Source of the DNA: Methanobacteriota archaeon
Lineage (GTDB): Archaea; Thermoplasmatota; Thermoplasmata; SG8-5; JAGLSY01
Assembly (NCBI GenBank): GCA_020697715.1
Contig: JAEHCO010000001.1
Location: 2,222-66,221 of the forward strand
Direction: 5' to 3'
Length of the DNA stretch: 64,000 bases
In this document: piece by piece, positions 7,258 to 53,367 of the stretch
Layout of the letters: every line of letters begins with the position of its first letter
How positions within the stretch are numbered: the first letter of the stretch is position 1
Position numbers and translations under genes: made by a program
Notes under the pieces: generated by a model
Database searches by the model: none
Told to the model about the DNA's origin: nothing
The model's input: only the letters and a program-made list of their open reading frames with translations

Positions 7258-7369
7258 GGGCCCATGGCTTAGCCTGGTTATAGCGCCCGGCTGATATGGA
7301 ACAAACCTCAAAAAAGGGTTTGTTCTCTCCGATACCGGGATGTCTCGAGTTCAAATCTCGTTGGGCCCA
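7258..7369 (+). tRNA. tRNA-Ile (anticodon GAU) with 37-nt canonical intron (7297-7333) between positions 37/38
   Basis: GGGCCCA/TGGGCCC acceptor stem, D-arm GCTT…TAGC, anticodon stem CCCGG/CCGGG with loop CTGATA-[intron]-A, T-loop TTCAAAT, discriminator A; intron contains 9-bp helix GAACAAACC/GGTTTGTTC. Confidence 0.75.
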
Positions 7370-15738: not shown

Positions 15739-15743
15739 TTAAA

Positions 15744-18047: not shown

Positions 18048-18051
18048 CTCC

Positions 18052-20025
18052 TCACAATTGAACCCTCGGGTCTAGATATGCATACAATATATCGGCAAAC
18101 ATGTTTCCGAGAACGGTCATCAATGCCATTATGTAGAATGCACCCTGAACGATTGGATAGTTGTGTGTTAAAGTTCCTCTAACGAGGAGCGTTCCCATTC
18201 CAGGCCACGAAAAGATCGTTTCTGTCAACACACCACCACTGATGATACCACCGAGTGAAAGTGCCATCGATGTCACAACAGGCAACATCGCGTTCCTTGC
18301 TGCGTGTCTGTACACGACCTGTCTGGTCTTCAGACCCTTTGCCTTGGCCGTTGTAATGAAATCCTCACCCATGACCTCAAGCATAGAGCTTCGCATCAGA
18401 AGGATAGTGCCTGCAAGACCTAAGACCGTCAAGGTCATCAGTGGTAAGGTCAAATGCCATAACACATCAAGGAAATATTCCATACCTAAAAGTGTCTCAC
18501 CTGTAGCAGAAACACCTCCAAGACCACTTAGAGGGAACCATTCAAGTTGAACAAAGAACACCCATTGAGCTATCAAAGCAGACCAGAAGATCGGCATAGA
18601 ATACAAGAATAGTGTTACCACGATTGTACCTAATTCAATAGCTGTACCTCTTCTCCATGCAACTACGACACCAACTACAATACCTATCATGTAGCTCAAT
18701 ATCAAAGAGCTTCCGAAAAGAAGTAGAGTTGGTGGCACTCTTTCTATGATAACATCCCATACTGGTCTGTTATCTTCGAAGGAATTGCCAAAATCGAACA
18801 GAAGCATTGATTTCATATAGAAAGCGAATTGTTCGAACATTGTCCTGTCCACAATATCAGTAGGATGACTCAGAAAGATCGTTGCTACATGCCCATCTGG
18901 TTGGGTTATAACTCCTTCCAAAGCACCGGCAACTCTGTCCCCATTGCTCTTAGTGGCTGATACATTCACCATTATGGTGGGAATTGATGCCTGATCATAG
19001 ATGAATGGGTATTCGGCTTCTAATCCTTCACCGACCCTGTGCATTGTGAAATCCGACAGGATCGTTGAGTCTGCTGGTAATACAAGACTGGAAGAAGCAG
19101 CATTGACAGGGAAAGATGAAGATATCTCAATTCCATTATCTGTCTCAACCACCATACTGAACATACCATTTATCGCAATAGGATAAGAACCATTGAACCA
19201 GGTTCCATCTTGTGTGAGAGTTAATGGTTGGGATGTGATATTGTCTGGTGATGTCACTCTGATATCAGCGGTTGTCGCACCTTCTATTTGTGTCGAAATT
19301 ATGATATTTTCGCCATTGACAGCCACCTCATTATCGGCCATTGCAGTTCCAAGGTTCCACATTTTGAATGATGGAGTAACTGCCACGATATCATCTGATA
19401 AATCCGTAGTCACTTCGAACGTCATAGCTGCAGTTGCAATATTCTGATAGATGTCCCTTGCCTCAAACACAACTGTGTAATTCCTGTTAGCACCAACAAT
19501 AGACGTGTGATCGATCAATGCCATGTATGCACCAACTACGACCTCATTCATGACGAGATCGGAAGTGGTTTCATACCCAGGGTCCGTGACACTGTACTTA
19601 ACATTCCTTATACCCGCCACATCTTCGGCTTCAAATATCACAGCAATGGTGCTATTATCTAATGCCAGTGCGTCAATATTCCATATTGAAGGCGGGTTAA
19701 GATCAGTAATTGTGGGATCCATATTTACATCAAATGATGTCTGAACAGTATCCCCTTCAGTCTCGACCTCGATAGTATAATGTCCAATCCTCGTTGGGTT
19801 GAAATTATATATGAAATGATTTCCCGGATATTCTACCTCTTTGGCGAAACCATATCTCAAGGCTATTTGATCCTTTTCAATCTCTGTTATTCCTGGCTTC
19901 ATGAAAAGGCCCATTGCCGCATCTCCAGGCATCAGCCTGAACAATACGAACAAAAGCACCAGGACAATCAACAGGGTGACTACCATATGTATGGTTCGTT
20001 TAACCAGATATTTCCTCAATCTCAT
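18052..20025 (-). CDS. ABC peptide transporter permease (OppB/DppB-like) with about 350-aa extracytoplasmic insertion after TM1
   Basis: 657 aa; DppB-type N-terminus and C-terminal permease core; inserted beta-rich Ig-like domain. Confidence 0.8.
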   Translation of the reverse strand: MRLRKYLVKRTIHMVVTLLIVLVLLFVLFRLMPGDAAMGLFMKPGITEIEKDQIALRYGFAKEVEYPGNHFIYNFNPTRIGHYTIEVETEGDTVQTSFDVNMDPTITDLNPPSIWNIDALALDNSTIAVIFEAEDVAGIRNVKYSVTDPGYETTSDLVMNEVVVGAYMALIDHTSIVGANRNYTVVFEARDIYQNIATAAMTFEVTTDLSDDIVAVTPSFKMWNLGTAMADNEVAVNGENIIISTQIEGATTADIRVTSPDNITSQPLTLTQDGTWFNGSYPIAINGMFSMVVETDNGIEISSSFPVNAASSSLVLPADSTILSDFTMHRVGEGLEAEYPFIYDQASIPTIMVNVSATKSNGDRVAGALEGVITQPDGHVATIFLSHPTDIVDRTMFEQFAFYMKSMLLFDFGNSFEDNRPVWDVIIERVPPTLLLFGSSLILSYMIGIVVGVVVAWRRGTAIELGTIVVTLFLYSMPIFWSALIAQWVFFVQLEWFPLSGLGGVSATGETLLGMEYFLDVLWHLTLPLMTLTVLGLAGTILLMRSSMLEVMGEDFITTAKAKGLKTRQVVYRHAARNAMLPVVTSMALSLGGIISGGVLTETIFSWPGMGTLLVRGTLTHNYPIVQGAFYIMALMTVLGNMFADILYAYLDPRVQL

Positions 20026-20101
20026 TTAAACATCTCCGATTCCTTCCTATCTATCTCTCTCGGGACTCCCGAAAAAAAGAAAAGGAAGGGCACTAGCTAA
20101 G

Positions 20102-24545: not shown

Positions 24546-25070
24546 TGAATGTAAAACAGCAGGAATTATACCCATCGCTGTACAGGTCTCCAGGGATAGT
24601 CCTTTTTGCGTTATGTCCAGATGATGGTTTCCGACCTCGAACACCTTCTTTGGAAGACCATGCGGACCGAGGCCAATGAGTAATAGCACAGATTTGCCTC
24701 TTTTGACCTGACTGGCCACTTCATCTGGAGCGATGCTTTTCTTCGCATCAGGCTTGCGAGTTGTGACGATCACATCACCAAATTGCGGAGGGAAACCTTT
24801 TTTCGGCATATCAAAAGCTTGAAAGCGACCAGCCTCGGCCAGTTCTATCAAGTACTGGCCGTTGTCTCCTATCGAAGTTGTTTCGGAGATCCACTCCACG
24901 ATATCTGCTGGTGTGCGCATTTCCCGATCATAGGGAAAGCCGAATGTAACTAGATTACAATCGAATGCCAGAGCGACCGGACCAGCTCTGGCCAGTGCCC
25001 TTCTGTGGGCTTCCCTTATCTTCTTCGGATCATAGCAATTGTACAGACCGAGGGTCATTCTTCCGGGCAT
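24528..25070 (-). CDS. SPOUT-class RNA methyltransferase-like protein (possibly tRNA 2'-O-methyltransferase)
   Basis: ORF track gives 24528-25262; the 5' extension would overlap folD, so start placed at internal Met (MPGRMTLGLY…); C-terminal knot-like motifs VLLLIGLGPHGLPK and LSLETCTAMGIIPAVL. Confidence 0.45.
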   Translation of the reverse strand: MPGRMTLGLYNCYDPKKIREAHRRALARAGPVALAFDCNLVTFGFPYDREMRTPADIVEWISETTSIGDNGQYLIELAEAGRFQAFDMPKKGFPPQFGDVIVTTRKPDAKKSIAPDEVASQVKRGKSVLLLIGLGPHGLPKKVFEVGNHHLDITQKGLSLETCTAMGIIPAVLHSINRKP

Positions 25071-25122
25071 GAGAGGGGACAATAGCCAATATTCAAATAG
25101 GCTTTTGGGTATATTCGACCGG

Positions 25123-26001
25123 ATGACAGCCAAGATCATTGATGGGAAGGGTATTGCGGAACAGGTGAAAGAGGAGCTTGGGCCAGCTATTAAGAGTTTG
25201 GGCGAAAGAGGTATAATCCCTGGACTGGCTGCCGTCATAGTGGGGGACGACCCCGCATCCAAGACCTATGTTGCGATGAAAGAGAGAGCATGTGATAGGC
25301 TGGGCATCAATAGTTTTGTGCATCGGCTTCCAGAGGAGACCACGGAATCCGAGCTACTGGCACTTGTTCAAGACCTGAATACCGATGATAAAATTCATGG
25401 CATCCTGGTCCAGATGCCAGTGCCCGATCATATCGACTCCAACAAGATACTAGATGCCATTGCCCAGGCAAAGGATGTGGACGGATTCAGCGCCGATTCC
25501 CTGGGAAAGATCATGTCCGGCAGGGAGTACTTCGTCCCCGCCACCCCCTTGGGCGTCATGGTCCTACTCGAAAGGTCGGGGATCGACCCATCTGGAAAGC
25601 ACGCTGTCATTGTTGGTCGAAGCAATATCGTGGGCAAACCACTGGCCAACCTCCTGATGCAGAAAAAGCAAGGAGCGAATGCCACGGTCACCATTTGCCA
25701 TTCCCGGACACCTGACGTGAGTGTTTTCACACGTCAGGCCGATATTCTTATCGCGGCCATCGGAGTGCCTGGATACATCAAGGCAGATATGGTCAAGCCT
25801 GGAGCTGTGATCATAGATGTGGGAATTAACAGCGTGGACGACCCAACGAAAAAGCGAGGCTACCGTCTTGTCGGAGATGTGGATTTTGATGCGGTATCGG
25901 AAGTGGCCAGTGCCATAACTCCGGTTCCCAAAGGTGTGGGGCCGATGACTATCGCGATGTTGATGAGTAATGTCGTCAAAGCCGCCGAGAATGGGCTTTG
26001 A
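25123..26001 (+). CDS. folD: Bifunctional 5,10-methylene-tetrahydrofolate dehydrogenase/cyclohydrolase
   Basis: Start placed at ATG 25123 (MTAKIIDGKG…); FolD motifs YVAMKERA, GILVQMPVP, VIVGRSNIVGKP. Confidence 0.9.
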   Translation: MTAKIIDGKGIAEQVKEELGPAIKSLGERGIIPGLAAVIVGDDPASKTYVAMKERACDRLGINSFVHRLPEETTESELLALVQDLNTDDKIHGILVQMPVPDHIDSNKILDAIAQAKDVDGFSADSLGKIMSGREYFVPATPLGVMVLLERSGIDPSGKHAVIVGRSNIVGKPLANLLMQKKQGANATVTICHSRTPDVSVFTRQADILIAAIGVPGYIKADMVKPGAVIIDVGINSVDDPTKKRGYRLVGDVDFDAVSEVASAITPVPKGVGPMTIAMLMSNVVKAAENGL

Positions 26002-26089: not shown

Positions 26090-28591
26090 TCAGCCCAATC
26101 TATCATACGGATTCTGGGATTCCACATACGAAACAGTACCCTCTTCGGATGGTTTCCCTTCTTCTATTTTTAGGTGACCGCTCTCATCATATTCGTCCTC
26201 ATCTGGCTCAGGCATGTCTGGATCCCTATCATCAGGATGTTGAGACTCAGGCTTTCGTCCAAAACCAAGGCCAGCCAGAACTCCCAGGATACCGGCTATC
26301 GCAGGTGCGATGACCGCCCAAAGAGGGATCTTCTCCTTTTCCACAACCCGAACTTCATCCGTGCCATTGAAGGTCAGAGTAGGCGCATCCAGGAAGTCCG
26401 CCACACCATCACCGTCCGAGTCCGGGGGAAGGGACGTGGCATCAAGAGGATCGGAGCCTGCCAGTATCTCGACGATATCACGCCAGCCATCGCCATCCGA
26501 GTCAGAATCCTCCAATCCATCGGTGAGGTTCAGGGTCTGATTTTGATAAATGACATTGGTATTGTTGCTATACTCGGTCAGATTGGACCAGACCGTGCCA
26601 TTGCTGTACTCGGTCAAGTTCGCCCACTGGGTGCCATTATTGTATTCTGTGAGATTCGCCCACTCTGTGGAGTTGGTGAAGTCTGTGAGATTGTTGTATA
26701 TCTGCTTCTCGATGAAATCTGGATCCATGAAATCCGCCACACCGTCGAGGTCAGCGTCGCCTGGCATGCTGGAATTGTCGGTCGTGTTCGTGCCGGATAT
26801 CACCTCTATTATGTCCAGCCAGCCATCATCGTCATCATCGGTATCTGCGTTATTGCCGATTCCATCGCCATCCGTGTCCAGGCTTTCGAGTGGATCAAAG
26901 GGGAAGATGTCATTGGTGTCCGGAACACCATCATCATCATCATCCAGATCCACAGAATCTGCCAGTCCATCACCGTCAAAGTCAGCAGAGATGGCAAGTG
27001 TGAATTGGGTTGATACCGCATTCCCATTATTGTCTGTGGCTGTCACTTCAACTTCGTAGCTTCCTGCCATATCTGGCCAGCCAGATAGGACCCCGCTGGC
27101 TGAGTCCATCCACAGCCAACTTGCATTGGTATTGATGCTCCATGTATGTGTGTCAGCTCCATCAACATCTGTAAGATCATAATCATTTGAATATAGCTGA
27201 CCAGCTTGGCCAGCGAAGATGTTGGCTGTGTCGATTGTCTGAAGGTCGTTGGTGTTCAGGGCATTGATGATGACATTTGTAGTGAAGGAACGGCCATATC
27301 CGTCTGTCGTGTTGTAAGTGAATCCATCGGTGCCAGTCCAGTTGGCATCAGGCAGGACCGACAGATTATTGCCAGAAAAGGAAACCTGGCAATTTGTTCC
27401 ATTTGAAAAGCCAGTTATCGTGAACTCGTTCTGGTCTGGTGCGTCATTGGCCAGCACGTTGATTATCGTGCTGGTGTCTTCTGTAATATTGAACTCGTCC
27501 CACAATGGGGTGTAGCCCCAGACTATCTTATAGATATTCAGCTCGCTTGGACCATTGTTAATACCTGTGGCAATATACTTATCGTCAGGACTCCATACCG
27601 CACACTGGGTGGTCAAGCCATAGGACACAGTAGAAATCAAAGTTAAGGTTATTCCATCGAAGAAAAAGAGGTAGCACTCTGGATTTCCTCCTGAGACACC
27701 AGCGACAATTAGGTAACGACCGTCAGAGCTCCAGTCTGCTGATAAGAGCGAGTTTGCTGAATTGAAGCTATCGATTATAGTTAGGGTATTACCATTAAAC
27801 ATCAGAACACTACACTCATATCCACCAGCTCCAGTGTCGCCTGAGATAGCCAAGTATTGACCATCAGGCCTCCAATTGACATCCTCTACATGAGCACCGT
27901 GTGAAAATTGAGCGACCATTATCAATGAAGATCCTGTAAAAAAGAGAACACGCACCTCAACAGCTGCATTGGTATCACCGCCCATTGCAAGATAGTTGCC
28001 ATCAGGGGACCAGTGTACGTCATTTACATCAGCACCGTGGTTGTAGCTGTCTAACTGGAAAAGGCTGGTACCATCAAAAATGAGGATCCAGACTAAATTG
28101 TCCACGCCACAGGAGGCAATATAATTGCCGTTTGGGCTCCAAGATACAGATAATACATCTGCCGAAGTAATGAAGCTGTCTATTTGGGTCAACATTGCTC
28201 CATTGAAAGCGAACACTCTAACACTATCATCCATACCACCCACAGCAATGTACTGGCCGTCTGGGCTCCAGTCGACAGCGTAACAGCTGAAGGCAAACGA
28301 ATAGCTGTCTATCTCATAGAGGTTATTGTTTAGTAAACGCAATACCCTAAGATTATCGCTTAGGCTTGCGATGGCCACATATTGGCCATCGGGGCTCCAT
28401 GCAATATCTCTAATCCCGTCATTATCATCATATTGCTCCAACAAGAATTTATCGGCGTATTGGGTCTCGAAAGTGGGACTTACTGCCTCTTGAGGCTGTG
28501 CTCCTTTTACATTGTCCAGCATCATAAACAATGAGCTGAAAACTAACATTAAACTTATCATCAATACGGTAATTTTCCTCATATCCTTCAC
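26090..28591 (-). CDS. Large membrane-anchored surface protein: beta-propeller head, Ig-like domain, Ca-binding TSP3-like repeats, NxT sequon stalk, TM, acidic tail
   Basis: 833 aa; signal peptide; seven WSPDGQY(I/V)A-type repeats; DFDGDGLADSVDLDDDDDG…; 12-aa repeats EWANLTEYNNGT; C-terminal hydrophobic helix and Asp/Glu/Pro tail. Confidence 0.75.
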   Translation of the reverse strand: MKDMRKITVLMISLMLVFSSLFMMLDNVKGAQPQEAVSPTFETQYADKFLLEQYDDNDGIRDIAWSPDGQYVAIASLSDNLRVLRLLNNNLYEIDSYSFAFSCYAVDWSPDGQYIAVGGMDDSVRVFAFNGAMLTQIDSFITSADVLSVSWSPNGNYIASCGVDNLVWILIFDGTSLFQLDSYNHGADVNDVHWSPDGNYLAMGGDTNAAVEVRVLFFTGSSLIMVAQFSHGAHVEDVNWRPDGQYLAISGDTGAGGYECSVLMFNGNTLTIIDSFNSANSLLSADWSSDGRYLIVAGVSGGNPECYLFFFDGITLTLISTVSYGLTTQCAVWSPDDKYIATGINNGPSELNIYKIVWGYTPLWDEFNITEDTSTIINVLANDAPDQNEFTITGFSNGTNCQVSFSGNNLSVLPDANWTGTDGFTYNTTDGYGRSFTTNVIINALNTNDLQTIDTANIFAGQAGQLYSNDYDLTDVDGADTHTWSINTNASWLWMDSASGVLSGWPDMAGSYEVEVTATDNNGNAVSTQFTLAISADFDGDGLADSVDLDDDDDGVPDTNDIFPFDPLESLDTDGDGIGNNADTDDDDDGWLDIIEVISGTNTTDNSSMPGDADLDGVADFMDPDFIEKQIYNNLTDFTNSTEWANLTEYNNGTQWANLTEYSNGTVWSNLTEYSNNTNVIYQNQTLNLTDGLEDSDSDGDGWRDIVEILAGSDPLDATSLPPDSDGDGVADFLDAPTLTFNGTDEVRVVEKEKIPLWAVIAPAIAGILGVLAGLGFGRKPESQHPDDRDPDMPEPDEDEYDESGHLKIEEGKPSEEGTVSYVESQNPYDRLG

Positions 28592-28648
28592 CCTGATTAT
28601 CTCTAAAAGGTAATCGGGCGGCGGGATAATAACATTTCCGTAATATTG

Positions 28649-31600
28649 TTAAGGAGTGTCTGGCTCCTCAGTTTCTTCAGCCTCTACCTCAGGTTCAGCC
28701 TCTGGTTCCGGTGTCTCTTCCGCAACCTCTGGTTTCCTTCCGCTTACTCCACGCTCTGCGAAGAAAACAGCCAGTGCTCCAAAGACTATGGCTGCAATCA
28801 ATGCTCCATAGGCCCATGTCGGGGTTTCTGAGACTGTTTCGGTTATTGTGACAGGGTCGGTAGTTTCATTGTTCCAAATGGTGTTGTTGTGATACTCGGG
28901 AATTGTGGTGTTGTGATACTCAGGAACCGTCTCATTGTTCCATATCGTGTTATTACTGTATTCAGTAACATTGTCCCAGACGGTTTGATTCACTGTCTGG
29001 TTATCCCATATTGTTTGATTGTTATATTCTATCACAATCAGAAAATCAGGATCCATATAGTCTGCCACGGTGTCATTATCAACATCTGATGGTATGGATG
29101 TATTGTCCAGTGGATCAAATCCACCAGCGATCTCTATGGCATCGTTCCAACCGTCCCAGTCATCGTCCAGATCTGCATTGTTACCGATTCCATCACCGTC
29201 TGTATCTGTATCCTCAGTTGGGTCTAGTGGGAGATCATCAGAGGTATCTGGAGTGCCATCATTATCATCATCTAGATCGGTTTTATCTGGATCCCCATCT
29301 CTGTCGGAATCCAGATTAACTGTTAGAATGAATGTTTGAGTATCGATTCCACCGTTACCATCGTCCACGATGATCTCAACATTGTAAGTGCCATCCTCAG
29401 TAGTGCTGGGTGTTCCGCTTATAATTCCACTGCTATCTATTGTAAGCCAACCAGTTGCGTTTCCTGCCAAGCTCCAGGTCGTTGATGGATCATCTGTGGA
29501 ATCATAATCCACCTCGTACAGTGCACCAGTGTTTGTAATTTCAATATCATTCGTTGTAATAATTGGTTCTGAATTTATCACTATGAGAGTGTAATTGAAG
29601 TATCCTTCTCGATTGATTGAATCTATTGCTGTGATATTGGCATAATATGTGCCCACATCTAAATTCTCTGGAGTTCCTGTCAGAACTCCAGAGTCTGAAA
29701 CAGACAACCAGCCAGTCATATTTGTATCAAGGTTCCAGTCAGTGATGGTGTTAAAGCCTGGATGAGGTTGAGGAGTACAATCAAGATCGATTACATAGAT
29801 CGAATCCTCCAAACATGTGTCCATAGCTGTAACTTGTGTAGTGGTCACTATTAGGGATATCGGCGTCAAGAAAGGATATGTTACCGTCTCCATAATGCCC
29901 CAGATATCAGTGAAATCCCAGCCTGTAAAAGTTAATTCCTGCTTCATCTCGATAGTGGTCTTGCCGATCCCGCTGGCAGTGCTCGGATTGCCGGATGTAT
30001 TGGTATCCCAGAAGCAGTTCATGGTGGAGTTAAGATCAATTCCTGCAAAGCCGCCAATTGAACTAGCTCCACTAGCATTTCCTGTGCTGTAGGAATTCAT
30101 AATAAAGCCAATAACATTATTTTGTCCAACAAAGCCACCGATCATACTACCGCTACTGGCATTACCAGTGCTATAGGAGTTCGTGATATCACCGCCATTA
30201 CATCCTACGAAGCCACCAACATTACCTGCAGTTCCGTTGGCACTGCTAGTACTGTAGCAGTTCGTGATAGCACCAATATTATATCCTACGAAGCCACCGA
30301 TCCACTGAACTCCGCTGATGACACCACCAGTGCTGTAGCAGTTCGTGATGGAGCCGTCATTATTATATCCTGCAAAACCACCAACATAATTTCCACTTCC
30401 AATGGCACTGGCACTAGCATCGCCAGAGCTATAGCAGTTTGAAATGGTGGCGCCGGGAGCATTTCGACCTACAAAACCACCAACATAATCACTAATTCCA
30501 AATATCCCACTAGCACTTGCACTGCCAGTACTGTAGCAATTCATTATAGAATCAGCATTCTGGCCAACGAAACCTCCAATATATAATTCGTACCCTATGG
30601 CATTCCCAATACTGTAGCAGTTTGTGATGGGGCCATCGTTCTGGCCAACGAAACCTCCTATCTGGATCGTACCGCTGGCACTGTCTGTGCTATAGGAGTT
30701 GGAAATATTGCCAGCATTACTTCCGATGAAACCACCTATATTACTATTGCCAGATGCACTGCCCTGGCAGTATGAATTGGTGATTGTGTTCGTATTCGCT
30801 CCGGCGAAGCCACCAACATAGGTTCCCCCGTTAGTGTTTCCGGTTGAATAGCAGTCGTCAATATTATTCTCATTGATTCCCACAAAACCACCTACATTAT
30901 CACCACTGCCTGTAACCATCCCAGTTGAATAACTGGAAGTGATCGGACCATGGTTCCAGCCCACAAAACCTCCGAATTTGTTACTTGTCGAATTTACTAG
31001 TCCCGTACTATAACAAATATCAATTATGTGACCAAAGGTGCTGTATCCCATGAAGCCGCCAATAGTTCCAGCCCCCGAAACATTACCTGTACTGTAACTG
31101 TTGGTTATTGAGCCCCCATTTCCACCAGATCCGGCAAAGCCCCCACTGTATGAGCCTGAAACATCCCCAGTGCTGTAGCAGTATGAAATGTCAGTATTAG
31201 TAGCCATATTGCCGATAAAACCGCCAGTTGATTGTGGGCCTGATACAAGACCTGTGGCATAGCAGTTGGTTATTTCTCTCGATGAATGGAATCCAGTAAA
31301 TCCCCCGGCATTATTACCGATGGCAGTAGCATTGCCAGTTGCATAGCAATTATTAATTGTGCTTTGACTTGTACCGACAAATCCTCCAACACGATCACCT
31401 GTTCCAGTTGCATCACCTGTACTAAAACAATTAACGATTATTCCATTGAAACCACTATCATGTCCAATAAAGCCACCGACATCATCTCGCCCATCGGCTG
31501 AGCCAGTGCTGTAACAGTTAGTTAATTGACTGTCATCATTCAATCCAATAAACCCACCAATCTCATCAGATGTACCAATTGCTGTTGCTTCGCTGTGGCT

Positions 31601-32359
31601 GTCAGAAACCGTACCATAATTTACTCCTAAGAGCCCTCCAACCTGATTGGAGCCCGAAGCGATACCAATACTACTGAGGTTTTGCAATGAGCCAGCACTG
31701 AGCCCGATCAAAACACCAATATAGACATTGCCAGTGGATGTGCCGTTGGAATTACAATCACTTATGATTGATGAACCACTTGAGGAACCAAGCAAGAGCC
31801 CTGCATAGCTGGTATTTGTATTTACTGAACCCTGACAGGAGATCCCCGTAATGATCCCTGAAGCACTACCGGCTAAACCTCCAACAGTATGATTACCTTT
31901 TATGTTAAGGCCAATGAAGATGATGTCCCTGATCTCGCTGTTTGGACCGGCATGACCAAAAAGTCCGACATAGCGTTGAGAGGAACGGTTGATGAAAAGG
32001 TCATTAATACTGTAGCCCTGGCCATCTAAGGAACCTTGAAAATCATCGACCCAATTACCAATTGGATCAAAACCCTCGAAGGCAGAACCATTTAAGTTCC
32101 ATGTTGAGGTCGCGCTGGCATCGATATCATTCATCAGAACATAATGGGCATTCAGATCCAGCTCCATTTCCTGAAGCTGGTTCACATTTGTTACCTGATA
32201 TGGATCTCCAGGAGTTCCGACACCCCCGCCTGAGAACAATGGGGCAGGAACTATCTCCATTCCCTCAACATCCGTAGTCATGTCCAGCATCACGAATGAT
32301 GAGCTGAAGATCATAGCTAAACTTATCAATAATGTAATAGATTTTTTCATATCCTTCAC
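28649..32359 (-). CDS. Giant surface protein with GLUG-motif repeat array, Ig-like domains, TSP3-like Ca-binding repeats, NxT sequon stalk, TM anchor
   Basis: 1236 aa; signal peptide; more than 20 repeats of VGGFVGxNxGxITNCYSTG type; C-terminal module paralogous to 26090-28591 and 32416-35610. Confidence 0.75.
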   Translation of the reverse strand: MKDMKKSITLLISLAMIFSSSFVMLDMTTDVEGMEIVPAPLFSGGGVGTPGDPYQVTNVNQLQEMELDLNAHYVLMNDIDASATSTWNLNGSAFEGFDPIGNWVDDFQGSLDGQGYSINDLFINRSSQRYVGLFGHAGPNSEIRDIIFIGLNIKGNHTVGGLAGSASGIITGISCQGSVNTNTSYAGLLLGSSSGSSIISDCNSNGTSTGNVYIGVLIGLSAGSLQNLSSIGIASGSNQVGGLLGVNYGTVSDSHSEATAIGTSDEIGGFIGLNDDSQLTNCYSTGSADGRDDVGGFIGHDSGFNGIIVNCFSTGDATGTGDRVGGFVGTSQSTINNCYATGNATAIGNNAGGFTGFHSSREITNCYATGLVSGPQSTGGFIGNMATNTDISYCYSTGDVSGSYSGGFAGSGGNGGSITNSYSTGNVSGAGTIGGFMGYSTFGHIIDICYSTGLVNSTSNKFGGFVGWNHGPITSSYSTGMVTGSGDNVGGFVGINENNIDDCYSTGNTNGGTYVGGFAGANTNTITNSYCQGSASGNSNIGGFIGSNAGNISNSYSTDSASGTIQIGGFVGQNDGPITNCYSIGNAIGYELYIGGFVGQNADSIMNCYSTGSASASGIFGISDYVGGFVGRNAPGATISNCYSSGDASASAIGSGNYVGGFAGYNNDGSITNCYSTGGVISGVQWIGGFVGYNIGAITNCYSTSSANGTAGNVGGFVGCNGGDITNSYSTGNASSGSMIGGFVGQNNVIGFIMNSYSTGNASGASSIGGFAGIDLNSTMNCFWDTNTSGNPSTASGIGKTTIEMKQELTFTGWDFTDIWGIMETVTYPFLTPISLIVTTTQVTAMDTCLEDSIYVIDLDCTPQPHPGFNTITDWNLDTNMTGWLSVSDSGVLTGTPENLDVGTYYANITAIDSINREGYFNYTLIVINSEPIITTNDIEITNTGALYEVDYDSTDDPSTTWSLAGNATGWLTIDSSGIISGTPSTTEDGTYNVEIIVDDGNGGIDTQTFILTVNLDSDRDGDPDKTDLDDDNDGTPDTSDDLPLDPTEDTDTDGDGIGNNADLDDDWDGWNDAIEIAGGFDPLDNTSIPSDVDNDTVADYMDPDFLIVIEYNNQTIWDNQTVNQTVWDNVTEYSNNTIWNNETVPEYHNTTIPEYHNNTIWNNETTDPVTITETVSETPTWAYGALIAAIVFGALAVFFAERGVSGRKPEVAEETPEPEAEPEVEAEETEEPDTP

Positions 32360-32415
32360 CCGGCTTCCTCTGAATGGGAATCGGGTGGCAAGATAATAAC
32401 ATTTCCGTAATATTG

Positions 32416-35400
32416 TTAAGAAATGTCTGGCTCCCCTTGCCCTTCAGCCTCAACCTCAATTTCAGCATCTGGCTCTGGAGATCCTTCCACACCCTCCGGC
32501 TTTCCACCACTTCCACCTCTGGTGAATCCAATAACAGCCAGCACACCCATAACGACAGCCGCGATGACCGCGCCCCAGGCCCATGCCGGGGTCTCGATGA
32601 CCGTGTCCTGTGTGGATGGATCGGCGGTGCCATTATTCCAAACAGTTGTATTATGATATTCTGGAATTGTGTTATTGGCCCATTCGGTCGTGTTGTGGTA
32701 TTCTGGAATTGTCTCATTGTTCCATATTGTTTGATTGTGATACTCTGGAACTGTCTCATTGTTCCAGATGGTCTGATTGTTGTACTCTGGAACTGTCTCA
32801 TTGTTCCAGATGGTCTGATTGTTGTACTCTGTGACAATGAGGAAATCAGAATCCATGAAATCCGCTATGCCGTCATTGTCATCGTCTGGTGGAAGATCAG
32901 TGTCATCCAATGGGTCAAATCCACCTGCAATTTCGACTGCATCGTCCCAGTTATCATTGTCATCATCATCATCCACCGAATCGTCAATTCCATCGCCATC
33001 ATTATCTGATACCATTGTCGGATCAAGTGGGAAGTCATCAGAGGTATCTGGAGTGCCGTCATTGTCATCGTCCAGGTCTGTGGTGTCCGGTTGACCGTCA
33101 TTGTCTGTATCCAGATCCACAGTAAGGGTGAATATCCGGGTGTCATTGGCACCGTTCCCATCATCAACTGTGACCTCGACATTGTAGATACCTGCCTGCG
33201 CATTGTTGGGTGTTCCGGACAATATTCCGTCATTGTCTATTGAAAGCCAGCCTGTGACATTACCGGACAGGTTCCAGGTCGTGGATGGGTCATCTGTGGA
33301 ATCATAATCGACCGAGTACAATGCTCCAGTGTTGGTGCTCGGAACATCTGGGGTTGTTATACTGGGGCCCATGTTCTCCACATCGAAGGTGTAATTATAG
33401 AAGCCTTGGTGGCCCACAGGATCCGTGGCCGTGATATTTGCATAGTATGTGCCTACATCCACGTTCAAAGGAGTTCCAGATATTACTCCAAATGAGGATA
33501 TGGACAGCCAGCCTGTGGCATCGGTTTCCAAGCCCCATTGCATCATGCCAGATCCAGGAAGAGGTTGAAGGGCTGAATCAAAAACGATCATGTAATTTGA
33601 ATCTTCAATAGCCGTGTCCATCATGGTCACTTGCCCTGTCGAGATAATTGTGGAGAACGGAGTCAGGTATGGGTATGAAGTGGTCTCCATAATGCCCCAG
33701 ACATTTGTGAAGTTCCATGGCGGGTTGAATGTCGCTTGCTGCTTCATCTCAGCAGTGGTCTTACCAGTTGCACCAGTAAGTCCGCCAGCGCCGATTCCTA
33801 TTCCTGTTACAGAAGTGTCGGTATCCCAAAAACAATCTATGATAGCGCCAGAATTGTTATATCCGGCAAAGCCACCCGAATTGAGATTACCGATTGCCCT
33901 ACCTGTGCTGTAACAATTCTTTATCGTGCCAATGCCCCATACATATCCTGTGAATCCACCAACCCGGTCATTACCAATAGCATTTCCCATGCTGTAGCAG
34001 TTCGCGATGATACCGTGGTTCTGTCCTGAAAAACCACCAACATATTCAATTGTTCCAATAGAGCTCCCAGTACTGTAGCAGGCAGTGATCGATCCAACTT
34101 CATTGATACCCACAAAACCACCAACATAACTATCTGTTCCAGTTGCACCCCCTGTGCTGTAGCTTGCCGTTATCGGTCCTTCGTTCCATCCTACAAAACC
34201 ACCAATATACATATGTCCACTGGCACTACCTGTGCTGTAGCAATTTGTGATCGTGCCGACATTGGTCATAAACCCCGCGAAGCCCCCAACATAATCAAAA
34301 ATTCCTGTGGCACTGCCAGTGCTGTAGCAATTTGTGACCTGGCTATTATCAATATATCCAACGAAACCACCAACATACATATCTCCATTTACAATACCGG
34401 TGCTGTATGAGTTTATGATCGTGCCGCCAATATTAAATCCAACGAAGCCGCCGACATAATGATCGATCGATGTGGCATCTCCTGTGCTGTAGCAGTTAGA
34501 GGCGGTATTGCCATTAAGACCGATGAAGCCGCCGACATTGTTAGCACCGCTGGCATCTCCTGTGCTGTAGCAGTTAGAGACGGGATTGCCATTAAGACCG
34601 ATGAAGCCACCGACATGATCATCACCACTGGCATTGCCAGTACTGTAGCAGTTAGAGACGAGATTGTTATTAAGACCGATGAAGCCACCATAATAATCTC
34701 CCGATGCAAAAGAGATGGCATTGCCGGTGCTGTAGCAGTTTGTTATAGTGCCACTGTTACTTCCTGTGAATCCTCCTGCATAATCATCGACCCCATTGGC
34801 ATCTCCCGTACTATAGCAATTTATTATGTCTGCCTGATTTTGGCCTACAAAGCCTCCTGTATACTCAACTGCGGTTGACGTGCCAGTACTGTAGCAATTG
34901 GAGATATTACCTACAAAATTAAGTCCTACAAATCCACCAGCGGTCCATGAGATACCATTTACAGAACTGGTACTGTAGCAGTAAGTGATAGTGCCACCAT
35001 TATTTGTTCCAACAAGCCCGCCAACATCAAAGATTCCAGTTACGTATCCTGTGCTGTAACAGTCAGTGATCGTGCCCATATTTCTTGCAACCAAGCCTCC
35101 AACAGTATCTTGGCCATCTATATCTGAATTGTTCAGGCCAATGCCAGTTAAGCTGGCTGTTTCGCTGATAATGCCAAAGAGGCCAACTTGATCTGTGGTG
35201 GAACGGTTTATTATCAAATTAATTATTTCAAAGCCCTGGCCATCCAGAGAGCCATTGAACTTCGATGTGGTATTACCAATTGGTGTAAACCCTGCGCCAG
35301 AATCCCAGATATTGGTAATTGTGGCATCGATATCATTGCCCAATACGTAACTTGCATTCATGTCCAAGCGTATGTAATACAAATCAAGAACATCCTCCAC

Positions 35401-35610
35401 AATGTAAGGGTTGCCAATACTACCATCTCCACCACCGAAAGCTCCTCCGGCAAGTGGGACAGGGCCGGGAACAATTTCCTCACCCTCTACATTCGCGGTC
35501 ATATCCAGCATCACAAAAAGTGAGCTGAGAACTAGCATAGAACTGATAATTAATGTGGCTGTTTTCTTCATGATATCATTTCCCCTATCAATGTGAGGGA
35601 AATGCACCAT
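32416..35610 (-). CDS. Giant surface protein, paralog of 28649-32359 (GLUG repeats, Ig-like, TSP3-like repeats, sequon stalk, TM anchor)
   Basis: 1064 aa; same architecture and near-identical C-terminal module; downstream flank ATAATAACATTTCCGTAATATTGTTAAG duplicated after both paralogs. Confidence 0.75.
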   Translation of the reverse strand: MVHFPHIDRGNDIMKKTATLIISSMLVLSSLFVMLDMTANVEGEEIVPGPVPLAGGAFGGGDGSIGNPYIVEDVLDLYYIRLDMNASYVLGNDIDATITNIWDSGAGFTPIGNTTSKFNGSLDGQGFEIINLIINRSTTDQVGLFGIISETASLTGIGLNNSDIDGQDTVGGLVARNMGTITDCYSTGYVTGIFDVGGLVGTNNGGTITYCYSTSSVNGISWTAGGFVGLNFVGNISNCYSTGTSTAVEYTGGFVGQNQADIINCYSTGDANGVDDYAGGFTGSNSGTITNCYSTGNAISFASGDYYGGFIGLNNNLVSNCYSTGNASGDDHVGGFIGLNGNPVSNCYSTGDASGANNVGGFIGLNGNTASNCYSTGDATSIDHYVGGFVGFNIGGTIINSYSTGIVNGDMYVGGFVGYIDNSQVTNCYSTGSATGIFDYVGGFAGFMTNVGTITNCYSTGSASGHMYIGGFVGWNEGPITASYSTGGATGTDSYVGGFVGINEVGSITACYSTGSSIGTIEYVGGFSGQNHGIIANCYSMGNAIGNDRVGGFTGYVWGIGTIKNCYSTGRAIGNLNSGGFAGYNNSGAIIDCFWDTDTSVTGIGIGAGGLTGATGKTTAEMKQQATFNPPWNFTNVWGIMETTSYPYLTPFSTIISTGQVTMMDTAIEDSNYMIVFDSALQPLPGSGMMQWGLETDATGWLSISSFGVISGTPLNVDVGTYYANITATDPVGHQGFYNYTFDVENMGPSITTPDVPSTNTGALYSVDYDSTDDPSTTWNLSGNVTGWLSIDNDGILSGTPNNAQAGIYNVEVTVDDGNGANDTRIFTLTVDLDTDNDGQPDTTDLDDDNDGTPDTSDDFPLDPTMVSDNDGDGIDDSVDDDDDNDNWDDAVEIAGGFDPLDDTDLPPDDDNDGIADFMDSDFLIVTEYNNQTIWNNETVPEYNNQTIWNNETVPEYHNQTIWNNETIPEYHNTTEWANNTIPEYHNTTVWNNGTADPSTQDTVIETPAWAWGAVIAAVVMGVLAVIGFTRGGSGGKPEGVEGSPEPDAEIEVEAEGQGEPDIS
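32657..32840 (-). repeat. In-frame 42-bp tandem repeat (about 4.4 copies, two identical) encoding 14-aa double-sequon units (PEYHNQTIWNNETV)
   Basis: Units start at 32657, 32699, 32741, 32783, 32825; 32741-32782 is identical to 32783-32824. Confidence 0.8.
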
Positions 35611-35642: not shown

Positions 35643-36680
35643 TTACAACAGCTTGCCCCACCTGGAAGGTTCCCTGCCCTTCCAGTTGCCCTTGTTGTAA
35701 GCATACCCGGCTATCAGCGGCAATGCGATGGTGGCCTCTGCCCAAACCATCTGCTCATGGTTGGTCTCTACTTTTCCCCATGAACTGGCTTCCTTCAGGG
35801 TGCTGCCGGATAATGCGCCATCGCGCTCGTCAGCCACTGTGATCTGTATCGCGTATTTGTGCATGCGGACATCCTCCAGGAGCTTGCCAGATGGGTCAAC
35901 TTCGACACCCAGGACAGTGTCCTGTACGAAGTTCTTGGGCACTCCGCCGCCTATCATGAAGATGCCGGATTGCTTGCTGGCTGTTACCAAGGCTACCAGT
36001 TCCCTGAAATCAGCGACCGAATCAATGCTCAGATGCAGATCCGGGTTCTGACGCTGGTGATCCAATAGACCGAATCCCGCACTGCAATCCGAGAAAGCTG
36101 GGCAGAAGATCGGAACATCCATCTTGTAGGCCGCGTGAATGACCGAGTCATCCACCTTCGGTCCCTGTTCATCCAGATACTTGCCCATCTCCTTGATGAA
36201 CTCGCGAGATGAATAGGGGCGCTTTTCGAGTTTGTCCGCTATCACTTTCACTGTCTGGTCGCACACGCGCAATTCTTCTTCATCTATGAACGTATCATAT
36301 ATTCTATCAATATGTAATTCGCGGAGATCATTGTCATCCACAAATGGTGTGCCGATGTAGTGCTTGAATCCAATGGCCTCGAAGAAATCCATGTCCACAA
36401 TTACCGCGCCAGTCGAGACAATTGCATCGATCATATTGTTCATTATCATGTCATGAACAATTTTCTTCAAACCTGCTGAGAAGAGGGAGCCGGACATACA
36501 AAGGATCACCTTGCAATCATGGTCAGCCAGCATCATGTCGTATATCTTGGCCGCGCGTGATAGATTGCGAGCCTGGAAAGCCATGCTGGACATCGACTCC
36601 ACGATATCTACAACGTCATGCTCTTTCATGTCATAATGCTCTATCAGGTCTTTGAGAAGGTCTTCTTTTTTCAGGTTCAT
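35643..36680 (-). CDS. dys: Deoxyhypusine synthase
   Basis: 345 aa; DHS motifs including MIGGGVPKNF and NAD-binding segment ILCMSGSLFSAGL. Confidence 0.85.
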   Translation of the reverse strand: MNLKKEDLLKDLIEHYDMKEHDVVDIVESMSSMAFQARNLSRAAKIYDMMLADHDCKVILCMSGSLFSAGLKKIVHDMIMNNMIDAIVSTGAVIVDMDFFEAIGFKHYIGTPFVDDNDLRELHIDRIYDTFIDEEELRVCDQTVKVIADKLEKRPYSSREFIKEMGKYLDEQGPKVDDSVIHAAYKMDVPIFCPAFSDCSAGFGLLDHQRQNPDLHLSIDSVADFRELVALVTASKQSGIFMIGGGVPKNFVQDTVLGVEVDPSGKLLEDVRMHKYAIQITVADERDGALSGSTLKEASSWGKVETNHEQMVWAEATIALPLIAGYAYNKGNWKGREPSRWGKLL

Positions 36681-40493: not shown

Positions 40494-41552
40494 CTAGAAA
40501 GCGTTGATAATCGTGTCCAGATCTTCCTTCGTCAATCCCGGATGCACCGGCAGGCTCAGCACCTCTTCCGCGGCCTTATCCGAGTTATCCAAGCCTTTGC
40601 TTCCATAATCAGATAGCAGGTCGAACTTGTGCAGGGATTTGGGGTAATACACACCTGATCCGACACCATTGTCCCTGAGCTTCTGGATGACATTGTCCCT
40701 ATCCTGCACTCTTATCGTGTACTGGTGGAAAACATGGCGGTAGCCATCTGGTACGTATGGAGTGACGATGCCTTTTGCTTTCAATCCTTCTGTTAAGTAA
40801 GCGGCATTTGCGATCCTGGCCTTGGTCATTTCTTCAAGTTTGGCAAGCTGGACAACGCCGATGGAGGCCGCGATGTCGGTCATTCTGAAATTGTATCCCA
40901 GGAATTCGTACACATAGCGGTCGGCCATGCCGTGGTTCCTGAACTTCTTGGCCAGGTCGTTTATCTCATCATCATTTGTCGTGATGATGCCGCCCTCGCC
41001 GGTTGTCATGTTCTTTGTTGGATAGAAGCTGAAACTGGCTGCATCTCCCATGGAGCCAGTGGTCTTCCCGTTCATGGCAGCTCCGTGAGCCTGGCATGAG
41101 TCTTCGAGAATCTTTAGACCATGCTGAACACCGAGCTTGTTTATCTTCTCCATGTCAGCTGACAGTCCGAAAATATGGACTGGCATGATGGCCTTTGTTC
41201 TTGGAGTTATCTTCTCAGCTATTGAATCAGGAGAGATATTGAAGGTCTTTGGATCTATATCCGCGAAGACCGGGGTCGCTCCCGTGAATAAGATGGATGT
41301 CGCACTGGCCACGAAGCTGAAAGGAGTTGTTATGACCTCATCGCCCTTGCCGATGCCCATTGATAATAGGGCGAGGTGAAGGGCCTGGGTTCCGTTTCCC
41401 ACCGCGATGCCGTGTTTCGCTCCGCAGTACTCGGCGAATTTTTCTTCCAATTCGGCGACTTTCTTTCCCTGAGCCAGCATACCGGATTGCATAACGGCTT
41501 TCACTGCCTCGAACTCGTCATCCCCTATCTGGGGGCTTGCTACGTTTATCAT
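40494..41552 (-). CDS. DegT/DnrJ/EryC1/StrS-family PLP-dependent sugar aminotransferase (WbpE-like)
   Basis: 352 aa; PLP-lysine region and family motifs (MPVHIFG, SFSFYPTKNMTTGEGG). Confidence 0.85.
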   Translation of the reverse strand: MINVASPQIGDDEFEAVKAVMQSGMLAQGKKVAELEEKFAEYCGAKHGIAVGNGTQALHLALLSMGIGKGDEVITTPFSFVASATSILFTGATPVFADIDPKTFNISPDSIAEKITPRTKAIMPVHIFGLSADMEKINKLGVQHGLKILEDSCQAHGAAMNGKTTGSMGDAASFSFYPTKNMTTGEGGIITTNDDEINDLAKKFRNHGMADRYVYEFLGYNFRMTDIAASIGVVQLAKLEEMTKARIANAAYLTEGLKAKGIVTPYVPDGYRHVFHQYTIRVQDRDNVIQKLRDNGVGSGVYYPKSLHKFDLLSDYGSKGLDNSDKAAEEVLSLPVHPGLTKEDLDTIINAF

Positions 41553-41553
41553 A

Positions 41554-42183
41554 TTACAATCTCCTGTGATCTTTTGGTGTTTCGCCTATTTGTCTAGCTG
41601 GCACACCTGCCATGATGGCGAAGTCCGGTACATCCTTCGTAACTACCGCGCCAGCTCCAATAACCGTATCCCTGCCGATCTTCACTCCTGGCAGGATCGT
41701 CGTATTGGCTCCTATCCTGGCATGGTCACCGACTCTCGCTCCTATCAAATTGATATCACCGCGACCCATGTACTTGTCATTCGTGAAGCACGCGCGTGGT
41801 CCGATAAAGACATCGTCGCCGATTATCGTGTTCGTTGGAATGTAAACACCTGTCTGGATGGATGTGCGATTCCCGATCTTGCACTGGTCCTCGATGACCG
41901 TGCTGGTACCGATTATAACCTGGTCGCCGATCTCTGTTTCTTCCCTTATGAGAGCGTGATGGCCAGTCTGGCATCTATCACCCATTTTCACATCCGTGTA
42001 GATGATCGTGTAATCCCTTATAACGCAGTTCTCTCCAAGTATCGAGCCGCGGGTCTCATTCTCGCGACCAGATATCATCAGTTCTTTGTCATGCTTTCCT
42101 GGATGGCCGATAACAGCAGTTTCTGCCACATATGTTCCATCACCTAGCTTGGTATCTCCAAGTATCCTTCCCATATTCATCAC
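41554..42183 (-). CDS. Hexapeptide-repeat sugar N-acetyltransferase (WbpD/PglD-like)
   Basis: 209 aa; left-handed beta-helix hexapeptide repeats across most of the protein; 1-nt gap and 4-nt overlap with neighbours. Confidence 0.8.
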   Translation of the reverse strand: MMNMGRILGDTKLGDGTYVAETAVIGHPGKHDKELMISGRENETRGSILGENCVIRDYTIIYTDVKMGDRCQTGHHALIREETEIGDQVIIGTSTVIEDQCKIGNRTSIQTGVYIPTNTIIGDDVFIGPRACFTNDKYMGRGDINLIGARVGDHARIGANTTILPGVKIGRDTVIGAGAVVTKDVPDFAIMAGVPARQIGETPKDHRRL

Positions 42184-43187
42184 TCCAGATCAATTTTCCT
42201 TCCAGTTTTAACGGATTCTATCGCGGCCTGGCAGACCTTGATCGTCTCCAGACCATCCTCACCGGATACGAGCGGTTCTCTCTTGTCCCGAATTGCTTCG
42301 AGGAAATCCACCAGTTCGTTCATGAGAGGTTCTTTCTTTCTTAGTGAAATGTCACGTATATCGAATTCAAGTGGGATATGCGACATATCTGAATTATCAA
42401 AAGCACGTACCTGGGAGGATGATATCCTCGCACTCTGAGTGATATAATCAAGCTCAACAAAGTTCTTCATGCACGTGAGCGAGAGCTTGCGCACTTTCAT
42501 GGGTGTCAACCAATTTATCTCGATGAAGCCAGTTGTACCGTTTTCGAAGTCAAGAAGTATGTTCGCATGATCCTCGAAAACATCATTGGCCTGCTTTCCA
42601 CCAAGTGCATAGACGCTCTTGATCGGGCTGCCGATGAGATAGCGGAGAGCATCGATATCATGAACACCCAGATCCATTACCACTCCCACATCCCGTATCC
42701 TTGCCGGGAAGGAACTAACGCGCCTGGCGGTGATAGTTACCACATCACCGAACTTCTTGGAAGCTATGGCTTCCTTGCCGAACTTCACCACTGGATTATG
42801 CCTCTCGATAAGACCGACCGCGAGGGTGAGGTTCGCATCCCTTGCCGCATTGATCAATGTCTGGGATTCCTCAATAGTGGAGCAGATGGGCTTCTCGATA
42901 AGCACATGCTTTCCAGCCGCGATCGCATCCATCGCGATCTGAAAATGCGTAACTGTCGGAGTCGCTATTGACACCGCTTCGATGTCAGAGGCAAGAAGTT
43001 CATGATAATCCTCATATGCCTTTGCTCCGAACTTTTCCGCAAGCTCACCGGCTGTCTTGAAATCCACATCGGATATTGCATCCAGAACACCAATATCTGA
43101 ATATACCCGGGCGTGGTTTCGACCCATTGAGCCAACACCTATAACTCCTACACTTATCTTACCTTCAAAGCTAGTCATCGCGAGCAC
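42180..43187 (-). CDS. Gfo/Idh/MocA-family NAD-dependent sugar oxidoreductase (WbpB-like)
   Basis: 335 aa; N-terminal Rossmann motif VGVIGVGSMGRNHARVY and EKP motif (LIEKPI). Confidence 0.85.
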   Translation of the reverse strand: MLAMTSFEGKISVGVIGVGSMGRNHARVYSDIGVLDAISDVDFKTAGELAEKFGAKAYEDYHELLASDIEAVSIATPTVTHFQIAMDAIAAGKHVLIEKPICSTIEESQTLINAARDANLTLAVGLIERHNPVVKFGKEAIASKKFGDVVTITARRVSSFPARIRDVGVVMDLGVHDIDALRYLIGSPIKSVYALGGKQANDVFEDHANILLDFENGTTGFIEINWLTPMKVRKLSLTCMKNFVELDYITQSARISSSQVRAFDNSDMSHIPLEFDIRDISLRKKEPLMNELVDFLEAIRDKREPLVSGEDGLETIKVCQAAIESVKTGRKIDLE

Positions 43188-53231: not shown

Positions 53232-53367
53232 ATATTTTGTCCTCCTGTAGACTATAAGCCTACGTAATTATAGATTACAAGGACAATATATTTATAGTTT
53301 TCTCAAAATAATACGGCAATCAACGTATATACATACGGCAAATACCGATGCATTGTGCCTCAAAGGA

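Follow-up and report, generated by a model that had tools for sequence, protein, structure and literature searches.

A tandem array of aromatic-x-Asn-x-Thr sequons forms a predicted N-glycosylated stalk in a cell-surface protein of an uncultured Thermoplasmatota archaeon

Glycosylated repeat stalks are already familiar from fungal adhesins, mucins, and the O-linked clusters of haloarchaeal S-layer proteins. The haloarchaeal Ser/Thr cluster adjoins the C-terminal membrane anchor and serves as a spacer. Such a Ser/Thr-rich glycosylated cluster has been described in the S-layer glycoproteins of Halobacterium salinarum and Haloferax volcanii (PMC6098224), and the fungal adhesins Epa1, Flo, and Als carry between binding domain and anchor an in-frame minisatellite stalk that varies in copy number and whose glycosylation is thought to form an extended rod and to guard against proteolytic shedding (PMC7199969). 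At the level of single N-glycosylation sites (sequons, Asn-X-Ser/Thr with X not Pro; positions counted from Asn), Thr at +2 makes the better acceptor (PMC7226087; bioRxiv 10.64898/2026.09.03.749169), Tyr or another aromatic residue at -2 is favored by yeast and mammalian oligosaccharyltransferase (OST) (PMC8191290, PMC7226087), and the enhanced aromatic sequon, which unites the two, raises glycosylation efficiency for these enzymes (PMC7226087, PMC8191290). Archaeal GLUG membrane proteins have in turn been suggested to act in adhesion (PMC9723798). Here we describe p1, a gene for a predicted GLUG surface protein in which an array of aromatic sequons directly precedes the membrane anchor. It lies in a window of 64,000 nucleotides (contig JAEHCO010000001.1 of assembly GCA_020697715.1, positions 2,222 to 66,221) from an archaeon of the Thermoplasmatota. 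A stalk built purely of tandem N-glycosylation sequons is described for archaea neither in the literature searched nor in Pfam or NCBIfam, and the p1 stalk appears to be a lineage-restricted, uncatalogued variation on the known glycosylated repeat stalk, made of N-sequons in a eukaryote-like optimal context.

The array occupies positions 32620-32829 of the minus strand and consists of five in-frame 42-bp (14-codon) units inside the p1 open reading frame (ORF). The window sequence, Tandem Repeats Finder (32693-32831, period 42, 3.3 copies, 91% matches, score 222), and a codon-registered extraction of the units are concordant on this point. Units 0 and 1 are identical at 42 of 42 positions (minus-strand DNA GAGTACAACAATCAGACCATCTGGAACAATGAGACAGTTCCA, peptide EYNNQTIWNNETVP), and a perfect tandem duplication of this length cannot arise by chance in 64 kb. 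A first-pass annotation of the window had reported the identical pair, with about 14 residues and two in-frame N-x-T sequons per unit, and had named a tandem-repeat search among its checks; the extraction and the search bear this out, and the sequon content extends to all five units. The span that it gave, 32657-32840, does contain the repeat but clips the last unit and overshoots the array by 11 bases, the strand was left unstated, and of the near-identical copies said to flank the pair only those on the membrane side are present. It had further proposed 36-bp periods for the arrays of two neighboring paralogs, p2 and p3; this is seen in p3 (26595-26664, period 36 by Tandem Repeats Finder), whereas the p2 array is irregular: the program reports a period of 24 bp at 28877-28926, and successive Asn residues are spaced 4, 6, or 8 residues apart.

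Each p1 unit follows the pattern EYxNxT-xWxNxT-xP, giving 10 sequons in 70 residues, all 10 of the form aromatic-x-N-x-T. In 20,000 shuffles of these 70 residues, the number of sequons was 2.7 ± 1.35 with a maximum of 8, and that of aromatic-x-N-x-T sites was 0.39, compared with the 10 observed for each. The sequon rule is obeyed at 10 of 10 sites in p1 and at 9 and 10 sites in p2 and p3, and an aromatic residue at -2 combined with Thr at +2 is found at 10/10, 8/9, and 9/10 sites, respectively. Overall, the three proteins contain 2.3-2.4 sequons per 100 residues versus ~0.5 in the cytoplasmic proteins of the window. The conserved Asn and Thr are spread over all of their synonymous codons, which argues for selection on the protein rather than on the DNA. 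A plus-strand gene (ORF 32374-33009) and a DNA-level function of the repeat were rejected on the same codon usage and because the minus-strand frame has Pfam domains and homologs.

In terms of architecture, p1 comprises a signal peptide, GLUG repeats, two He_PIG immunoglobulin-like (Ig-like) domains, DxDxDG repeats, the sequon stalk, a transmembrane helix, and an acidic tail. The Pfam model Glug (PF07581) matches p1 in eight stretches (E value 4e-53, 174.7 bits, above the gathering score of 20.5), and He_PIG (PF05345) matches with an E value of 4.6e-16. The DxDxDG repeats are visible by eye in p1 and have precomputed PF18884 matches in relatives, but in p1 itself neither PF18884 nor PF02412 matches even at E ≤ 10. 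They end in a motif, D[GT][IV]AD[FY]MD, that is conserved family-wide. The hydrophobic leader is conserved in p2, p3, and the ortholog from a sister metagenome-assembled genome (MAG), L004. The longest p1 ORF begins 13 codons upstream of the MKK that opens this leader, and since p2, p3, and the L004 ortholog all have their start at this MKK, the true start of p1 is probably the ATG at 35571 rather than that at 35610.

An AlphaFold model of the last 207 residues of p1, built on a nine-sequence alignment, places a helix at fragment residues 152-174 with a predicted local distance difference test (pLDDT) score of 76-82. This helix is conserved among relatives as ETPxWAWGAVIAA. The stalk, at a pLDDT of ~30, is modeled without any secondary structure, including strands. 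By prediction, the leader, the single C-terminal helix, and the Arg/Lys residues right after it put the stalk on the extracytoplasmic side, and the array is thereby modeled as a membrane-proximal external stalk between the last ectodomain module and the helix. Anchoring of the PGF-CTERM/archaeosortase type was rejected, as p1 has no match to the C-terminal sorting-signal families of NCBIfam even at E ≤ 10, lacks the PGF motif, and continues after the helix in a tail of 35 mostly acidic residues.

A HMMER search with stalk plus anchor as the query against 1.84 billion representative proteins (E ≤ 0.001) returned only 56 matches. About 30 of these share one architecture, in which a surface ectodomain and aspartate-rich repeats lead via a DFMDPDFL motif into a sequon array, followed by the ETPxWAWGAVIAA helix and then an acidic tail; the remainder are unrelated repeats. 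Lower-ranked matches (P0019, P0031, P0038, P0043, P0050, P0051, P0053, and similar) contain unrelated N-x-T or Trp-containing repeats and were not counted as family. A profile scan with a narrow alignment located 11 loci on genome contigs and only one weak locus on metagenome contigs. All of the stalk-anchor relatives come from MAGs of uncultured Thermoplasmata/Thermoplasmatota, and the stalk type appears to be limited to this one archaeal lineage. No Pfam or NCBIfam model covers either stalk or anchor. Across 32 proteins and loci, the array holds 0 to 14 sequons and is separated from the helix by 4-13 residues, or by 53-75 residues where an extra aspartate-rich module stands in between.

We compared 157 distinct stalk contexts with 434 sequons elsewhere in the same proteins, Asn being 100% by definition in both sets. 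At -2, the stalk sites have Tyr in 45%, Trp in 30%, and Phe in 3% of cases (78% aromatic), compared with 9% Tyr elsewhere. At +2, Thr accounts for 97% of stalk sites and 63% of the others, and at +3, Val or Ile accounts for 67% of stalk sites, whereas the other sites have Gly (20%), Val (12%), or Ile (7%). Positions -1 and +1 are variable in both sets, with +1 in the stalk never Pro, by the definition of a sequon. The spacing from Asn to Asn in the family stalks is 6 residues in 82 cases, 8 in 39, and 4 in 29; half-units of 7 residues and units of 4 residues both occur, and insertions and deletions of half-units are seen. In some cases the module is followed by an inserted dipeptide, VP or IP, with Pro last; in others it is reduced to V-N-Q-T. 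Given these spacings and half-unit changes, the conserved entity appears to be a short sequon module, aromatic-x-N-x-T-(V/I), rather than a DNA motif or a structural coil of 14 residues. Because the -2 and +2 preferences are specific to the stalk while the x positions and the unit lengths vary, the selected feature would be the glycosylation site itself rather than a folded repeat.

Taken together, these data are consistent with the notion that the stalk is an N-glycosylated membrane-proximal spacer of a Thermoplasmatota cell-surface protein, a reading to which we assign a probability of about 0.7. We infer export, glycosylation, spacer function, and mutational mechanism as follows. The protein would be exported by means of its N-terminal signal peptide and held by its one C-terminal helix. 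Each unit would present two modules of six to eight residues, aromatic-x-Asn-x-Thr-(Val/Ile), and after translocation AglB, the archaeal oligosaccharyltransferase, would add one N-glycan per Asn, up to 10 in 70 residues. The glycans could convert an unstructured peptide into an extended, protease-resistant, sheathed spacer that keeps the GLUG, Ig-like, and aspartate-rich ectodomain off the membrane, and the arrays would grow, shrink, and be remodeled by unequal recombination or replication slippage between units. By analogy with the stalks of fungal adhesins, projection of the ectodomain and resistance to proteolysis are the likely benefits; fully extended, 70 residues would span an estimated 17-24 nm. 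Because the -2 preference is confined to the stalk, the aromatic residue probably either raises occupancy where sites are crowded or stacks on the first sugar and stiffens the rod. In cultured Thermoplasmatales, N-glycans have been seen directly on NXS/T sites (PMC12448462), and N-linked glycans are reported on Thermoplasma membrane proteins (PMC11407970).

Several points weigh against this reading. Glycosylation of p1 is predicted from its sequence, and sequons that lie 4-8 residues apart may not all be occupied. None of the ORFs scanned within the window gave a match to an oligosaccharyltransferase family, and AglB is absent from the window. In published surveys, aromatic neighbors are rare at archaeal N-glycosites (PMC3392279, citing Abu-Qarn and co-workers), and a role of the -2 aromatic is thus not demonstrated for any AglB. 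The missing fold in the AlphaFold model is weak evidence, given the small alignment. In the sister species, moreover, the stalks are identical in three independent assemblies, with no differences in length.

A bolder and more tentative extension, possible but on present evidence doubtful, is that one Thermoplasmatota lineage has a portable "glyco-rod" cassette, in which optimized aromatic-x-Asn-x-Thr-(Val/Ile) arrays precede a conserved anchor and the -2 aromatic is functionally required, through either a eukaryote-like AglB pocket or aromatic-sugar stacking. If true, the stalk would be the first case of a prokaryote that uses the enhanced aromatic sequon naturally and also, with one glycan per seven residues, the densest N-glycosylated archaeal segment known.

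The array could instead be a folded repeat, such as a β-solenoid or a stack of hairpins with ladders of Tyr/Trp, Asn, and Thr, or an aromatic strip that binds carbohydrate or a surface, with N-x-T arising as an unglycosylated by-product. The aromatic residue, Asn, and Thr do fall at i, i+2, and i+4 and would lie on one face of a β-strand, and an aromatic preference that sets the stalk apart from the sequons of the organism at large would fit a structural role. We nevertheless regard a folded repeat as unlikely. A solenoid coil would not tolerate units of 4, 6, and 8 residues with half-units freely gained and lost, the arrays of P0005, L010, and L011 have no more than one unit, and the near-invariant Thr at +2 and the exclusion of Pro at +1 are known requirements of the transferase. 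The β-solenoid in particular was rejected on its varying module length and the absence of structure in the AlphaFold model, with no strand at a pLDDT near 30.

The units also carry a record of how the array has changed. The identical pair appears to be the most recent duplication and intragenic in origin, in view of the perfect match and of unit 2, which is close to the pair and has four synonymous changes among its six differences. Units 3 and 4 look like older, diverged copies. Gene conversion between paralogs was rejected as the source of the identical units: p1 and p2 share ~66% DNA identity across the C-terminal 1365 nt and have no tract of high identity, which points again to an intragenic event. 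The closest known relative of the p1 C terminus is P0001 on L003, which is 75% identical and has five units, the first lacking two residues. Between these two proteins only the last unit (unit 4) is positionally orthologous (34/42), and the internal units cannot be paired. The deoxyhypusine synthases of the sister MAG L004 and of the window share 96% identity, but the adjoining GLUG gene of L004 is only 55% identical to p1; its stalk starts with an array of 5 sequons, which an extra aspartate-rich module separates from one further unit, as opposed to five contiguous units in p1, and its helix is almost unchanged. Since positional orthologs differ in stalk make-up in this way, the arrays appear to turn over on an evolutionary timescale.

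Much faster change was considered as well, namely that the array is a contingency locus at which slipped-strand events generate stalk-length variants within a population, as in the variable surface proteins of pathogens. The perfect in-frame 42-bp duplication and the differing array sizes of paralogs and relatives would be expected of such a locus, yet we judge it quite improbable. Only two units are identical, and the others, at 86%, 69%, and 55%, would be a poor substrate for frequent slippage; the sister-species ortholog does not differ among its three assemblies; no length variant of p1 occurs among ~15 billion proteins, in which p1 is a singleton cluster at 90% identity (P0197); and no conversion tract between paralogs was found. 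The stalk differences seen are between species and between paralogs only. The length-variable, glycosylated stalk of the first-pass annotation thus fares unevenly: its length does vary between the paralogs (10, 9, and 10 sequons), across the family, and between positional orthologs, but the identical sister alleles speak against fast slippage in populations, and the position before the C-terminal helix and the sequence statistics fit selection on a glycosylation site, with glycosylation itself predicted. That the identical pair is an assembly artefact, either a spurious expansion or a collapsed longer array, is very improbable, for although perfect tandem copies are classic sites of misassembly, the exact repeat of ~47 bp (the 42-bp unit plus 5 shared bases) is shorter than ordinary short reads and its flanking units are distinguishable, the array sits on a 956,489-bp contig, arrays of the same size occur in independent assemblies of relatives (9 sequons in L003 and L006), and the reading frame is intact.

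Table 1. Features of p1 and its paralogs, in positions of the 64,000-nucleotide window
Feature	Position	Strand	Description
p1	32416-35610	-	1064-aa ORF, predicted type I membrane-anchored surface protein
p1 probable Sec signal peptide (N-terminal hydrophobic leader)	35482-35571	-	MKKTATLIISSMLVLSSLFVMLDMTANVEG, read from the sequence; presumed cleaved
p1 aspartate-rich, thrombospondin-type-3-like DxDxDG repeats	32839-33117	-	End in conserved motif DGIADFMDSDFL immediately before the stalk
p1 unit 0	32788-32829	-	EYNNQTIWNNETVP, membrane-distal member of the perfect pair
p1 unit 1	32746-32787	-	EYNNQTIWNNETVP, 42/42 vs unit 0
p1 unit 2	32704-32745	-	EYHNQTIWNNETIP, 36/42 vs units 0 and 1
p1 unit 3	32662-32703	-	EYHNTTEWANNTIP, 29/42 vs unit 0
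p1 unit 4	32620-32661	-	EYHNTTVWNNGTAD, 23/42 vs unit 0
p1 transmembrane anchor helix	32524-32586	-	AWAWGAVIAAVVMGVLAVIGF, helix in the AlphaFold model
p1 cytoplasmic tail	32419-32523	-	35 aa, basic by the membrane (TRGGSGGK), then acidic
p2	28649-32359	-	1236 aa, GLUG and Ig-like domains, 51% identical to p1
p2 stalk	28856-29029	-	Irregular, 9 sequons
p2 transmembrane helix	28757-28819	-	Same kind of anchor as p1
p3	26090-28591	-	833 aa, WD40 β-propeller ectodomain in place of the GLUG region
p3 stalk	26522-26701	-	10 sequons, 12-aa (36-bp) period

The paralogs p2 and p3 lie downstream of p1 on the same strand, with gaps of ~57 bp. Pfam GLUG matches p2 in nine stretches with 187.7 bits (cut-off 20.5), and p2 equals the database protein P0018 from residue 16 onward. 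In p3, which like p1 is a singleton cluster at 90% identity among the ~15 billion proteins, one more aspartate-rich module stands between the stalk and the transmembrane helix (26261-26323, minus strand). One stalk-anchor module is thus joined to different ectodomains, a GLUG repeat region in one case and a WD40 propeller in the other. Tandem arrays at the DNA level, with periods of 78-84 bp and matches of up to 89%, are also found at 30164-30349 and 34030-34689 on the minus strand. They match the GLUG units, 26-28 residues long, in p2 and p1, and the ectodomains, too, appear to derive from fairly recent internal duplications.

The three genes lie between genes for deoxyhypusine synthase (35643-36680) and FolD (25039-26001). 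We compared this region (window 26090-35610) with L004, L003, L015, and L016. In relatives whose deoxyhypusine synthase is 89% and 82% identical, the surface genes are absent and the synthase directly adjoins FolD, DUF531, and a helix-turn-helix regulator, whereas the sister MAG with the 96% identical synthase has at least two GLUG genes at the island position. Because the neighbors of the synthase differ among relatives in this manner, the three surface genes appear to form a variable genomic island.

The wider window, with a G+C content of 45.7%, is identified as archaeal by topoisomerase VI A and B, deoxyhypusine synthase, DUF531, SMC with ScpA and ScpB, aRF1, and glycerol-1-phosphate dehydrogenase (511 bits, cut-off 413). 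A number of other features were observed outside the island. At 7258-7369 on the plus strand, an Rfam model detects a 112-nt transfer RNA (tRNA; 49.4 bits) that ARAGORN missed and that is probably an intron-containing archaeal tRNA. On the minus strand at 40494-43187, adjacent genes encode a DegT-family aminotransferase, a NeuD/PglB-type hexapeptide acetyltransferase, and a UDP-GlcNAc 3-dehydrogenase-like protein (342 bits, below the 450-bit cut-off), which looks like a diacetamido-sugar pathway that could feed surface glycans. An oligopeptide-type ABC transporter at 13604-23089 (minus strand) has unusually large components, with a binding protein of 995 residues that contains a Big_1 domain, an OppB-like permease of 657 residues with a DUF7743 insert, and an OppC-like permease of 767 residues with a β-propeller or PQQ-like insert. 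A protein of 1605 residues (59136-63953, minus strand) combines zinc ribbons at its N terminus with DUF11 repeats and 18 sequons, 7 of them with an aromatic residue at -2, and its gene contains a 30/90-bp tandem array at 62077-62300; the neighboring protein (55592-59152, plus strand) is a zinc-ribbon and TPR protein of 1186 residues. Finally, at 52725-55438 on the minus strand, three KaiC/ArlH-like ATPase genes stand beside a gene whose small product begins with an archaeal type IV pilin N-terminal domain, and the group may be an accessory locus for a pilus or archaellum.

The stakes are moderate, as the cassette is rare (~30 clusters among the 1.84 billion representative proteins) and its proposed functions are all predictions. 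Within these bounds, the consistent aromatic residue at -2 contradicts the published generalization that aromatic neighbors are missing from archaeal glycosites and matches the preference of eukaryotic OST. The stalk sequons offer a testable handle on the substrate preference of the AglB of an uncultured archaeon and a natural design for tags of high-occupancy glycosylation. Asp362 of yeast Stt3, opposite position -2, leaves room for a Tyr or Trp side chain, unlike Arg331 of PglB (PMC7226087). The locus further illustrates modular surface proteins, with one stalk-anchor cassette and different ectodomains in a variable island, in a lineage that may lack an S-layer, as do cultured Thermoplasmatales.

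Set against the systems with which we began, the GLUG adhesin-like family (PF07581) includes both p1 and p2 but describes the ectodomain only, without the stalk-anchor module, which in p3 is joined to a WD40 propeller instead. The stalks of fungal adhesins are eukaryotic and mostly O-mannosylated, have units of at least 40 residues, and vary demonstrably in copy number between isolates, whereas the p1 stalk is archaeal, has N-sequon units of 14 residues, and varies between species and paralogs. The haloarchaeal S-layer cluster resembles the p1 stalk, whose glycosylation is predicted, in being a low-complexity stretch of an archaeal surface protein that is densely covered with sugars. Its sugars, however, are O-linked to clustered Thr/Ser, whereas in the p1 array all but 2 of the 12 Thr/Ser residues occupy the +2 position of a sequon and N-linkage is predicted; a mucin-like, Ser/Thr-rich, O-glycosylated stalk was rejected on this count. 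The anchors differ as well, the haloarchaeal one being of the PGF type, archaeosortase-processed, and lipid, and that of p1 a plain transmembrane helix with an acidic tail of 35 residues.

The stalk query also matched a fish-like C-type lectin, P0027, in which a transmembrane segment is followed by many 14-residue repeats, RYDNQTIEKYQLQT, each with Tyr-x-Asn-x-Thr, and then by the lectin domain. Its neck has the sequon type and the 14-residue period in common with the p1 stalk; unlike p1, it is a type II membrane protein with one sequon per unit, and it is unrelated to p1 by descent, the match being one of low complexity at 35% identity. Necks of animal C-type lectins probably form a coiled coil, and the repeats of P0027 look like a eukaryotic case of convergence on the archaeal stalk unit. 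The closest likeness at the level of the site is the enhanced aromatic sequon, whose five-residue pattern, with Tyr, Trp, or Phe at -2 and Thr at +2, is identical to that of p1. In the work of the Kelly laboratory, it reportedly takes the form of individual reverse-turn sites at which the aromatic ring stacks against the first N-acetylglucosamine (GlcNAc). That sequon was defined for eukaryotic OST, whereas here an archaeon carries it naturally, in arrays that reach 14 sites.

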